Shown here one piece after another: positions 54,401 through 57,453 of a stretch of DNA of 64,000 nt. The stretch spans positions 1 to 64,000 of IMG/VR virus record IMGVR_UViG_3300033463_000051; one strand, written 5' to 3'. Made by a program: the position numbers and the translations under genes. Within the stretch, counting starts at the first letter, position 1; the number at the start of each line of letters is the position of its first letter. The stretch is from a virus. Its lineage: Duplodnaviria; Caudoviricetes. A model generated the notes under the pieces. The model searched no databases, had not been told where the DNA came from, and saw only the letters and a list, made by a program, of their open reading frames with translations.

Positions 54401-54925
54401 ATGAAACCTTTAACTAGAATCGAGCAGTTTCTGGCGAAGATAGCCGGAAATAAGGATGCAAAAGATATAGCGCCCAAGACAAGGCTTGAGCATTTTCTGG
54501 ATGATATAGCGGAGGCTCAGGTCGGCAAGGAACTGCCCGACATCGAGGCAGGAGACGAGGGCAGACTCGTTGGTGTAACGGATGGTGAATACGGTCTTGT
54601 AGACGCTCCGAGTGGCGATATGTTTGTCGTTACATTTGAGGACGGCTCAGACCCCGGGACGTTTACGGTCGACAAGACATACGCTGAAATCGTCGAGCAG
54701 ATGGACGACGCGCCCGGGAACATCCTGTTTAAATACGGCCCGAGTCCGGCGATAGGAGTCTCACAGAGTGATGACTCTGTAACCGCCATTTTCTTCATCA
54801 TCGATGCAGGGGCGGCAGAACTGTATGCTTTGCAGATTACCGTGGGTAGCGATGACGGAATAACATCGTATATAGATGGATATACTCTTACGCCGATTGA
54901 CAACGGTGGCGGCGGCACGGAGTAA
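54401..54925 (+). CDS. Acidic fibre-like protein with PxTRxExFL N-terminal module
   Basis: Paralogue of 52377..52967; RBS GAGAGGTG. Confidence 0.7.
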   Translation: MKPLTRIEQFLAKIAGNKDAKDIAPKTRLEHFLDDIAEAQVGKELPDIEAGDEGRLVGVTDGEYGLVDAPSGDMFVVTFEDGSDPGTFTVDKTYAEIVEQMDDAPGNILFKYGPSPAIGVSQSDDSVTAIFFIIDAGAAELYALQITVGSDDGITSYIDGYTLTPIDNGGGGTE

Positions 54926-54973
54926 CCACAAAATACGTTTTCAACAAACAGATGGGTTATAATTAATAATGGT

Positions 54974-55039
54974 AAAAAAAAGACCAGTAGTCTAGCTATC
55001 ATCACAGTGATATAGCCGGTTCTACTGGTCTTTTTTTTT
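54974..55039. terminator. Bidirectional terminator between the late operon and int
   Basis: A8-GACCAGTAG...CTACTGGTC-T9 with inner GCTAT..ATCAC-A-GTGAT..ATAGC stem. Confidence 0.85.
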
Positions 55040-55067
55040 GTTGTATGCATATCGTATAGTACTCTTG

Positions 55068-55311
55068 AAAATGGGTAAATCGTGGGTAAAATTTCGATTT
55101 GATCTCTCGTAACACTAACGTTACCAATGGGTTTGGGGATTTGCGCCTAACAACCTTTGTTATTATACATAAATCCTACATAACTTCTTATAAGTTCTTA
55201 TATCTTTTTAAAGGCTAGTTTTTTCAACGGTTTTGGGACTTGGGCTTTCACGTAACTTCTTATAACTTCTTATATCGTCACTGTCAAAATGGGTAAAATT
55301 TTGGGTAAAAA
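55068..55311. mobile_element. Putative attP region (arm-type and Xis-type repeats)
   Basis: TGGGTAAA pairs at 55072/55083 and 55290/55302 in direct orientation; 24-bp TAACTTCTTATAA(G/C)TTCTTATATC at 55181 and 55253; immediately downstream of int. Crossover core not identifiable without the host sequence. Confidence 0.75.
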
Positions 55312-56559
55312 TTATAGAATTACTATCTTACCTTCAAGTGCGGATGACCTACTCTCCCAGCGGTCGGATGTGACCTCATTGTAAATCTCCATGGTAGTGC
55401 TTATTTTCGAGTGCCCCATAATCTCCTGTATGTATTTAAGGTCTGTCTCTGTCTCACACAATCGTGTACAGAACGTATGACGAAGGCAGTGGACAGAGAA
55501 GTGCGGGAGCATCGGGTTATCCAATTGTTTTTGCGAATTATATTCTTTGATTATCTTCTTTATCATCCTATCGACATACGACGCTTCAAATGGCTTTTTA
55601 CTATCCAGCACAAACACGAATCCACTATAACGGTCTACCGTTATATTATTTGTACCCCGTATCTCGCACCGTTGTTTCTCGCGAATGAGCGCCTCGCGTA
55701 CATCCCGTAGCATTGGGATCGTTCGCCGCCCCGCGGCGCTCTTTGGAGTTGTGATATATCGGCGTCTAGTACCATCCGGGAACGTATCGGTCTGCAAGTT
55801 TGCCTTGATGTATATCCTATTATTTTCAAAATCACAATTGTCCCATGTAAGTCCGGCCGCCTCTCCGGCACGGCATCCCGTACCAAGAAGAAATATAAAA
55901 TAGTCCGCAAATTTGGAGTACTTTCTGCTGTTCTGACAGAACTTAATAAATGCTTTTTGCTCTGGTATGGTAAGGGCTTTTCGTCTTTGCTCCCTGTCAT
56001 CAGCGTAGTCCTGTACAACAGCCATTGCGCCCTTGCATGGGTTTATCCTTATGATGTTGTCCTGTACGGCCGACTCGAACACTGGATATATACTTGCGCT
56101 TATTGTTTTGATAGTAGTTGGTTTTAGTCCCCGGTTCGTTAACAAATCAATATATAGGCGTTTTACATCTGTGTGCTTGATGTTTTTGATTTTTTGTAGC
56201 CCGAACTCCTTTCTGATATATCTGTCGTACATACTTCTGTATCGACTAAGTGTGGACGGCTTTAGGCTGGCCTTAGTCTGGATATATGTATCAAAATAGT
56301 TATTCATGGTTATTTGCAGTGCGGCGTTAATATCTATTCCTTCATCCAGATTCTTTTTTATGACGGATTCCATTTCTCGTAACGACTCTTTGCATTTTTT
56401 ACTACTGGGTACTTTGTCTGTTGGCGTTAACTTCCAACTATAGACACTATGGGTCTTGCCGTCGCATCCTTTGTACCTGTATTCATACTTGCCATCGCTG
56501 CGTTGCCGTTCTCCGTTTGCCAGAACACGTCCTTTGCTGTCGCGTCTCTTTTCAGACAT
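55312..56559 (-). CDS. int: Tyrosine integrase, Tn916 Int-like (N-terminal arm-binding domain)
   Basis: MSEKRRDSKGRVL..GERQRSDG.YEYRY; TGCRAGE, HCLRHTF, MGHSKISTTMEIY; RBS AGAAGGAG before ATG 56559. Confidence 0.93.
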   Translation of the reverse strand: MSEKRRDSKGRVLANGERQRSDGKYEYRYKGCDGKTHSVYSWKLTPTDKVPSSKKCKESLREMESVIKKNLDEGIDINAALQITMNNYFDTYIQTKASLKPSTLSRYRSMYDRYIRKEFGLQKIKNIKHTDVKRLYIDLLTNRGLKPTTIKTISASIYPVFESAVQDNIIRINPCKGAMAVVQDYADDREQRRKALTIPEQKAFIKFCQNSRKYSKFADYFIFLLGTGCRAGEAAGLTWDNCDFENNRIYIKANLQTDTFPDGTRRRYITTPKSAAGRRTIPMLRDVREALIREKQRCEIRGTNNITVDRYSGFVFVLDSKKPFEASYVDRMIKKIIKEYNSQKQLDNPMLPHFSVHCLRHTFCTRLCETETDLKYIQEIMGHSKISTTMEIYNEVTSDRWESRSSALEGKIVIL

Positions 56560-56604
56560 AACATTCTCCTTCTGATCCGAGTACGCTACGATATGCATAC
56601 ATAT

Positions 56605-56632
56605 ATAATAACATACCACCTTTCAAATGCAA
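56605..56632 (-). promoter_or_regulatory. Candidate int-specific promoter between xis and int
   Basis: TTGCAT-16 bp-(TG-t)TATTAT on the - strand. Confidence 0.5.
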
Positions 56633-56637
56633 GTCCG

Positions 56638-56832
56638 TCAAATGGCATGAGTCCTGTTTATAAACTCTTCAAATTTGACACGTTTTATTTGCGGGCGGCT
56701 GCCGTTCCATAATATGTAATCAGCGTTATTATCATCTTCTATGATTCGTCTGAGTTTGTTTTCTCCTATTCTGAAATAGGCAGCGGCCTCGTCGACAGAT
56801 AATGTGTATTTTTCCCAAATGGGTATCTCCAT
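56638..56832 (-). CDS. xis: Excisionase, Tn916 Xis-like
   Basis: IPIWEKYTLSVDEAAAYFRIGENKLR..IKRVKFEEFI. Confidence 0.93.
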   Translation of the reverse strand: MEIPIWEKYTLSVDEAAAYFRIGENKLRRIIEDDNNADYILWNGSRPQIKRVKFEEFINRTHAI

Positions 56833-56862
56833 AAACTCACCTCGCTGGATTTATGTGTGTCT

Positions 56863-56890
56863 GTCCCTAATAATATATATTATTCGGAAC
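56863..56890. other. dif-like 11-6-11 tyrosine-recombinase site
   Basis: GTCCCTAATAA-TATATA-TTATTCGGAAC; arms 9/11 inverted. Confidence 0.55.
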
Positions 56891-56905
56891 GAATAGTTGG
56901 AATTC

Positions 56906-56936
56906 GGAGCCCCGCATAAAGCGGGGCTCCTCTTTT
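56906..56936 (+). terminator. Hairpin between dut and xis; U-tract on the + strand
   Basis: GGAGCCCCGC-ataaa-GCGGGGCTCC-TCTTTT. Confidence 0.6.
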
Positions 56937-56952
56937 GCGGAAAGCAAAATGT

Positions 56953-57453
56953 TTAATCAAACATACTTAATTGTCCGTCTATCTCACTATCGTTGACAAT
57001 TACGTTTTTGCCTGTACTGCCAAAACCTCCCGCCCCGCGCTCGGTTTCGCCAAGATGTTTGGCCTCAACGAAATCAAATGGCAAATACGGTATAACAATG
57101 AGTTGAGCGATTCTTTCGTGGTGCTCTATCTTTTGCGGCATGTCCGTATCGTTGTGGAGGGCTACCATTATTTCGCCTCTGTAATCACTGTCGATCACAC
57201 CTACGCAATTGGCGGGTCTCAGCCCTTGTCTAGAGGCTAACCCGCTTCGGGCAAAGATGCCGCCGAAGCACCCTTCGGGTATCGCTATAGCGATACCGGT
57301 TTGAACCATGTAGGTTGTATGGGGCTGAATATATATGTAATCTTCTTCGAGGCAGGCGTATAAGTCGTGTCCGGCAGCATCTGCGGATGCCTTTTGAGGT
57401 ATTATCCCATCACGATATGGGATTCTAGCAACTTCAATCCTCGTTCTGTACAT
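56953..57453 (-). CDS. dut: Trimeric dUTPase
   Basis: AGHDL, ARSGL, GVIDSDYRGEI, RIAQL, RGAGGFGSTG. Confidence 0.95.
   Translation of the reverse strand: MYRTRIEVARIPYRDGIIPQKASADAAGHDLYACLEEDYIYIQPHTTYMVQTGIAIAIPEGCFGGIFARSGLASRQGLRPANCVGVIDSDYRGEIMVALHNDTDMPQKIEHHERIAQLIVIPYLPFDFVEAKHLGETERGAGGFGSTGKNVIVNDSEIDGQLSMFD

Follow-up and report, generated by a model that had tools for sequence, protein, structure and literature searches.

An uncultured temperate phage of 101 kb carries a 23-nt sequence twice, in inverted orientation, around its integrase gene int and the adjoining attachment site attP, in such a way that the two ends of the int message would be complementary to each other. We analysed the window, by which we mean the whole stretch of 64,000 nucleotides that forms positions 1-64,000 of the linear IMG/VR record IMGVR_UViG_3300033463_000051 (101,082 bp, estimated to be 85% complete), and we refer to the copy in the int leader as L and to its partner beyond attP as L'. 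Complementarity of the same kind, at the same place and in unrelated sequences, recurs in related phages, and in one related lineage integration is seen to separate the two elements. The L/L' pair probably couples the making of integrase to the state of the phage DNA, free or integrated. As to how, our best reading, to which we give about even odds, is that pairing in cis between the 5' and 3' ends of the message senses an intact attP, a proposal in which activation is our preferred, though conjectural, direction. Independently of the long-range pair, leaders that occlude the ribosome-binding site (RBS) throughout the family, together with a G.U-rich hairpin that holds a promoter in its loop, constitute a solid and apparently undescribed finding.

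The inverted repeat around int and attP

The two copies lie at 55042-55064 (plus strand) and 56579-56601 (minus strand) and match at 21 of 23 positions, just as an earlier note on this DNA had reported, with a perfect 15-mer followed by two mismatches and a perfect 6-mer. There is no third copy with three or fewer mismatches in the window, and none of 100 dinucleotide shuffles yielded two matches. Across the whole 101,082-bp genome, L/L' is the sole inverted repeat with a score of at least 15 and arms 200-3000 bp apart (a score of at least 17 was reached in 0 of 20 shuffled genomes), and the two halves of the 23-mer occur nowhere else in it. As RNA, the duplex of L and L' has a predicted energy of -32.7 kcal/mol, against -15.3 +/- 2.5 kcal/mol for shuffled leaders. 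Two independent ENA assemblies (100,994 bp and 3.6 kb) agree with the window base for base over the 2-kb region and have it in the same orientation. Beyond these, another copy of the exact 23-mer was not found in viral contigs, a 29-nt attP-proximal pattern had no match in metagenome contigs, and GenBank phage records returned only weak matches internal to int.

The arrangement of the module agrees in most respects with what the earlier note had described (Table 1). Between the two copies lie int (55312-56559, minus strand) and an attP rich in repeats, and the order of promoter, leader copy, int, attP, partner and terminator is borne out. The leader copy stops 7 nt short of the Shine-Dalgarno (SD) sequence (AAGGAG at 56571-56566). 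The candidate int promoter, Pint, proposed at 56605-56632 within the 78-nt gap between xis and int, reads TTGCAT-16-TG-n-TATTAT, although a simple consensus scan did not flag it; relatives have TTGAAA-17-TAnAAT promoters at the equivalent position.

We propose a mechanism in which int would be transcribed from its own promoter in the xis-int gap, the transcript starting within a few nucleotides of L, running through int and the whole of attP and ending at the terminator just past L'. As long as attP is intact, the message would pair through its 5' end with L' to form a panhandle, with some 18-20 of the 23 positions present in the RNA. Because L overlaps the leader arm that folds onto the ribosome-binding region, such pairing would change how translation starts, how open the 5' end is to decay, or the two together. 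On integration, crossover at the core would send L' to the other end of the prophage, leaving Pint transcripts without this key in cis. In the direction that we prefer, Int made from Pint would appear mainly while the genome is free, favouring integration, and would be throttled in the lysogen. The end-to-end panhandle suggested in the earlier note does emerge from a thermodynamic fold of the 1.63-kb message, in which the two ends are predicted to pair with P ~1.

Conservation, separation and leader folding in relatives

Relatives were gathered as 80 viral loci, 80 loci from bacterial genomes and 80 further viral loci, the bacterial-genome loci being from Clostridia (Oscillospiraceae, Acutalibacteraceae and Lachnospiraceae) and mostly integrated prophages. 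The Int of the window is an outlier in this family, with a nearest homologue that is 51% identical, while relatives are 62-83% identical among themselves; its Xis is 60-71% identical to the Xis of related lineages. No Int homologue above 51% identity was found in a set of 5.8 billion proteins or in reference genomes, and no integrated copy of the window phage was found in the collections searched, namely the protein set, the reference genomes and the metagenome contigs.

The L/L' design recurs in approximately 15-20 related lineages whose Int is 43-49% identical to that of the window. All relatives examined share one attP layout, consisting of proximal arm units, TAAGAAG repeats, core and distal arm units, and the lineage-specific complement of the leader is located on the far side of the distal arm sites, at 240-370 nt downstream of the int stop. 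When the 130 nt before int were compared with the sequence past the int stop, an inverted repeat with a score of at least 17 was present in about 15 of 48 viral loci, whereas no bacterial-contig locus scored above 12. We also compared the duplex energy of each leader with its own 3' untranslated region (3'UTR) and with 82 cross-locus controls: the cognate 3'UTR ranked in the top 3 of 83 in 15 of 29 non-redundant viral loci, where about one is expected, and in 2 of 54 bacterial-contig loci. The L/L' sequences themselves are unrelated between lineages, and L007 carries part of the window's leader sequence together with its own matching partner. The comparison of homologues proposed in the earlier note thus showed complementarity kept and sequence not kept, an outcome that we count in favour of an RNA over a DNA site.

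Placement is equally regular. In almost all lineages, the start of the leader element is 7-14 nt beyond the -10 box; the element never covers the -10 or -35 box, and in relatives it continues into the leader arm folded over the RBS. The distal arm units are followed within 5-25 nt by the partner. An intrinsic terminator is predicted 2-77 nt after the partner in 14 of 21 lineages, and none is predicted between int and the partner in 20 of 21. Leader and partner pair over only 11-13 bp in many relatives, and the partner of G004, of 13 nt, was located with a shorter search pattern. The distal element of the L020 group brings together, in one stretch, two segments which are 75 nt apart on the upstream side.

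Two of the loci have attP regions with peculiarities of their own. In L013 (+200 to +300 past the int stop), the distal arm repeats differ in sequence type from the proximal ones and there is no leader partner, and this attP-like locus may be a recombinant module. L087, on a contig of a Clostridia metagenome-assembled genome, has a tandem duplication of about 130 bp right after the core (+160 to +420 past the int stop).

The effect of integration can be read from lineages for which both states are available. Within a lineage, the free and integrated forms stay collinear past the int stop as far as a conserved core approximately 140-170 nt downstream and then diverge, the free form continuing into the distal arm, partner and terminator and the integrated form into host DNA (L024 vs L016; L020 vs L022, at +150; L013 vs L095). 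In the 119-kb integrated record that contains L016 (99% complete), the leader element lies at 117314-117326 and its inverted partner at 87-99, with the distal arm before it and the terminator after it; the copies are thus 117 kb apart, while in two free genomes of the same lineage they are 1.56 kb apart. The claim that integration moves the partner to the other end of the prophage is therefore directly confirmed in a related lineage (L024/L016). For the window itself, the layout of the relatives would place the candidate core, and with it the crossover, between int and L', as the earlier note had also supposed.

The same comparison bears on the integration site. Relatives integrate within a host gene or at its end, and their attP contributes its final 2-4 codons together with the stop; the product of the gene reads IPTMKP at the core. 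Cores of this type occur in L095, L016, L115, L122, L087, L038, L077 and L007. A tRNA-binding domain follows in the host sequence of L095 and L016 (PF01588; L095:4372-4884), and the gene is probably metG (unconfirmed). No tRNA gene or fragment is present in the window. Since attP of the relatives completes a host gene, host transcripts in a lysogen should end with the distal arm, L' and the phage terminator.

The leaders of the family are clearly RNA regulatory elements. Among 111 non-redundant leaders, 86% occlude the RBS, with an arm that pairs either with the SD itself or with codons 2-6, in which case SD and AUG lie in the loop, and this arm covaries with N-terminal codons that differ between relatives. 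In the window, a hairpin caging SD and AUG, as described in the earlier note, is among several nearly equal folds, but statistically it does not stand out here (z = -1.2).

A second leader structure was found further upstream. In about half of the related loci, whether free or integrated, the -10 box of Pint sits in the loop of a hairpin that has the leader as its 3' arm and lies 30-70 nt upstream of the int ATG (for example L027:2934-2968; also L020, L038, L040, L046, L077, L010, L012/L013/L095 and others). Dyads of this kind score at least 9 in 21 sequence windows, against 0-1 in int-coding controls, and their mismatches on the int-sense strand comprise 37 G.U and 4 A.C, compared with 3:6 in controls. 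Both enriched and G.U-biased, which is a clear mark of RNA, the hairpin is selected as RNA in xis-int read-through transcripts, the only ones in which it can form. Its 5' arm runs in the same sense as L', which suggests that the key is present twice, once for xis-int transcripts and, across attP, once for those from Pint. In the window this hairpin is absent, and a search of its xis transcript for an upstream copy of the key gave background matches only.

Other repeats also connect this upstream region with the distal side of attP. In L020, L027, L040, L046, L047 and L050, the distal element runs on directly into 23 nt that are complementary to the 3' end of the xis coding sequence (positions -125 to -103, and approximately +300 to +330), and a synonymous CGT/CGC difference in xis is mirrored in the distal copy. 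Because the distal element continues into the complement of xis, long xis-int transcripts could form about 30 bp with the 3'UTR. In L038, L073, L077 and L074, a 24-27-nt inverted copy of the distal tandem arm-type sites is found just upstream of the -35 box of the int promoter (copies at about -125 to -99 relative to the int ATG and at +262 to +288 after the int stop), which suggests that Int binds beside its own promoter in these lineages.

Taking the family as a whole, we tentatively put forward, with more doubt than confidence, that Tn916-type modules of Clostridia phages contain a widespread protein-free RNA sensor, with a lock over the RBS, a key across attP in the 3'UTR and, in many relatives, a second key upstream. 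If this is true, Pint transcripts would be productive only from an unintegrated genome, while the second key, upstream of the loop-buried promoter, would render xis read-through transcripts always productive. Integration and excision would then obtain separate translational licences from one and the same gene.

Weighing the alternatives

The attP-sensing RNA switch put forward in the earlier note is supported by the anatomy of the module, by the conserved complementarity and by the separation of the elements in a relative; it is not supported by the pairing itself, which has no G.U bias and in this phage hardly alters the predicted accessibility of the SD. This leads us to a series of observations that weigh against regulation by RNA pairing. 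Long-range mismatches across lineages comprise 10 G.U, 7 A.C and 28 others, so there is no wobble bias, and the difference in duplex energy between the sense and antisense strands is no larger than for non-cognate pairs. The predicted start of Pint at about 56598 would leave approximately 3 nt of the 23-mer upstream of the message. In the window phage, the predicted accessibility of SD and AUG is about the same with and without L'; the global fold even pairs the SD partly with bases beside L', and with z -1.2 to -1.6 the RBS hairpin is itself weak. Pairing displaces the outer stem only in about half of the relatives, and some lineages have the same hairpin but no partner: a whole-genome search found none for L013/L095, and none was found elsewhere in the genomes of integrated L095 and L122, a lineage that is without the element. 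Moreover, were Int switched off in the lysogen, the window phage would be without an upstream key to supply Int for excision. Finally, L' is probably still transcribed in trans in a lysogen, as the tail of the interrupted host gene, which blurs the notion that pairing occurs only when attP is intact. On the other side of the balance, pairing in the relative L018 raises the predicted accessibility of the SD from 0.09 to 0.91.

Some of these points would be explained if the 23-mers were DNA sites for one protein, an operator over +1 to +20 of Pint and an auxiliary site at the far edge of attP, possibly cooperating by looping while attP is intact, with a variable sequence that tracks a fast-evolving regulator. 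We consider this unlikely. The absence of G.U bias and the identity reaching about 3 nt upstream of the predicted start would fit such sites, and both copies co-vary as whole segments, as a co-evolving protein also predicts. The arm-type copy by the -35 box of Pint in L038, L073 and L077 indicates that coupling of Pint to attP proteins at the DNA level exists in the family, and there are known cases in which int is autoregulated through proteins of the att site (KplE1 IntS/TorI, P4 Int/Vis; PMC2951348). However, the 23-mer is unlike both the arm-type units and the TAAGAAG repeats, the latter being probably sites for an attP accessory protein such as Xis. Given that Int-N, Xis and their presumed sites are well conserved and L is not, the known DNA-binding proteins of the module are unlikely binders of L, and the lack of any other copy of either half in the 101-kb genome argues against an operator set of a general phage repressor. 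A candidate regulator gene was not found in the module. The element never lies over the -10 or -35 box and begins at the transcript start in most lineages, and the distal copy of the L020 group, which joins segments 75 nt apart, suits RNA helices better than a protein site.

The pairing could also act in cis as RNA with the opposite sign, creating an RNase III-type processing site or burying the SD, so that Int is lowered while attP is intact and released on integration. This would remove the problem of Int for excision in a lysogen without an upstream key, it has a precedent in lambda (PMC2951348), and both the 23-bp helix, which has about two turns with a central 2x2 internal loop, and the partial pairing of the SD with bases adjoining L' in the global fold are compatible with it. 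We nevertheless judge it quite improbable: all Pint transcripts of the free genome would carry both arms, leaving no evident source of Int for integration, the 11-13 bp of pairing in relatives are short for RNase III, and in L018 pairing clearly frees the SD. L' may, on the other hand, have no function for int at all, as a drifting remnant of a leader duplication or as a sequence whose only role concerns the host gene or the terminator. The lysis operon and, in lysogens, the interrupted host gene also rely on the terminator after L' for their ends, and some lineages do without L'; yet complementarity persists across fully diverged lineages in the same place and orientation, where neutral remnants would decay, and this explanation seems to us very improbable. 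Least plausible of all, to a degree that we barely entertain it, is that the repeats form an inverton which flips int and attP relative to the promoter. An inverted repeat does flank a tyrosine recombinase gene, with a promoter just outside the right arm, but a single orientation was found in three assemblies and in all related loci, the enzyme belongs to the classical arm-binding integrases and is accompanied by Xis and a complete attP, and the repeats of relatives are 11-13 bp long, of unrelated sequence and, in the integrated relative, 117 kb apart.

The integration module and known systems

The features of the module are collected in Table 1. NrdD/NrdG and dUTPase genes precede xis on the minus strand, and DNA polymerase III alpha-like, PhoH, ClpP and nucleotidase genes also lie near the module. 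The terminator is predicted to close both the lysis operon (convergent holin/endolysin, plus strand) and the int transcript (minus strand). A near-perfect, AT-rich and operator-like palindrome overlaps the likely xis promoter, and just upstream of it is a 10-bp GC-rich hairpin that has a T-run on the plus strand only (56863-56890 and 56906-56930). A promoter-like site at 55065-55092 on the plus strand (TTGAAA, 16 nt, TAAAAT; 10/12) adjoins the left 23-mer and is directed into attP, antisense to int; as a source of antisense RNA it was set aside because it is made of arm-site sequence and is not conserved in relatives. A search of 54800-57000 against Rfam 15 gave six matches with E <= 1, all far under the gathering scores of their families.

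Table 1. Positions of the elements of the int-attP module in the window
Feature	Position	Strand	Basis and remarks
Bidirectional intrinsic terminator, 17-bp perfect stem with A-run and T-run flanks	54974..55038		100% complementary; folds as terminal hairpin in full-length RNA
L', partner of L	55042..55064	-	Reverse complement of L on int-sense RNA; in 3'UTR beyond attP, 3 nt before terminator
Distal arm, second set of tandem arm-type units, abuts L'	55061..55094		Direct-repeat family D1; relatives
Candidate core/crossover	55121..55143	-	Counterpart of conserved core of relatives; in-frame stop 55123-55121 would complete host gene
Two tandem TAAGAAG-type repeats	55178..55276 (55178-55204, 55250-55276)		Direct-repeat family D2, 93% identical; kept across family
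Proximal arm, tandem arm-type units (GGGTAAA type), overlaps int stop	55280..55313		Direct-repeat family D1; same layout in relatives
int, 415-aa Tn916-type tyrosine integrase with N-terminal arm-binding domain	55312..56559	-	PF02920 (7.2e-28), PF14659, PF00589 (3.9e-28)
Candidate RBS-enclosing hairpin	56539..56589	-	Arm overlapping 3' half of L pairs with codons 2-7, SD and AUG in loop; -14.4 kcal/mol, z -1.6
L, leader copy of 23-mer	56579..56601	-	From about predicted int transcription start to 7 nt before SD; sequence and analogous element of relatives
Candidate Pint	56605..56632	-	TTGCAT 56632-56627, 16-nt spacer, TG 56613-56612, TATTAT 56610-56605; predicted start ~56598
xis, 64-aa Tn916-type excisionase, same strand as int and upstream of it	56638..56832	-	PF09035 (1.8e-20)

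The timing of phage integrase production has been worked out in detail in few models, mainly lambda-type retroregulation and autoregulated int genes, and full-text literature searches returned no published description of leader/post-attP complementarity or of the promoter-in-loop hairpin. If the pairing acts as RNA, it would provide a simple means of self-sensing the recombination state, in which recombination rewires the 3' end of an mRNA, and the design appears common in gut Clostridia phages. If true, it would account for the near-consensus promoters before int genes in lysogens and offer a compact natural design for recombination-coupled RNA switches. It could also supply a practical rule for locating attP cores and for telling free from integrated copies in metagenomes.

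In its logic, the window system is closest to lambda sib retroregulation, where a local hairpin completed by antiterminated read-through is cut by RNase III and Int is lowered. Both have a 3' element that lies beyond attP from int and is removed from the transcript by integration: L' is located beyond the candidate core, and the separation is seen in L024/L016. The defining structural features of sib are, however, missing, since L' has no local complement and lies upstream of the terminator, so that no local hairpin would be completed by read-through. Here the distal element instead complements a 5' leader 1.5 kb away and precedes the terminator, every Pint transcript would carry L', the pair overlaps an arm of the RBS hairpin and may act positively, and there is no homology in sequence or structure. 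What sib establishes is that a cis element past att can make Int synthesis depend on the state of att (PMC2951348).

A different wiring of Int expression to the attachment-site region is the negative autoregulation of int in KplE1 IntS/TorI and P4 Int/Vis, where the promoter lies inside attL and is bound on DNA by Int and the directionality factor (PMC2951348). The arm-type sites beside Pint in the L038 group recall this arrangement, but int of the window is transcribed towards attP from a promoter 1.3 kb away, and its 23-mer is unlike the sites of Int and the presumed sites of Xis. Expression that depends on joined ends is also a property of Tn916, in which circularisation allows transcription across the joint by promoter read-through into the transfer genes, and of integration-dependent immunity in mycobacteriophages, in which a protein-coding gene is truncated at attP; unlike the system proposed here, neither involves 5'-3' RNA pairing. 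Finally, in anti-antisense or toehold activation of the DsrA-rpoS type and in IS10 fold-back inhibition, a second complementary segment opens or closes an RBS hairpin, and translatability comes to depend on the promoter used, much as might be the case for the promoter-in-loop hairpin of the relatives. The difference is that the activator would here be the message's own 3'UTR, its presence being set by DNA recombination.

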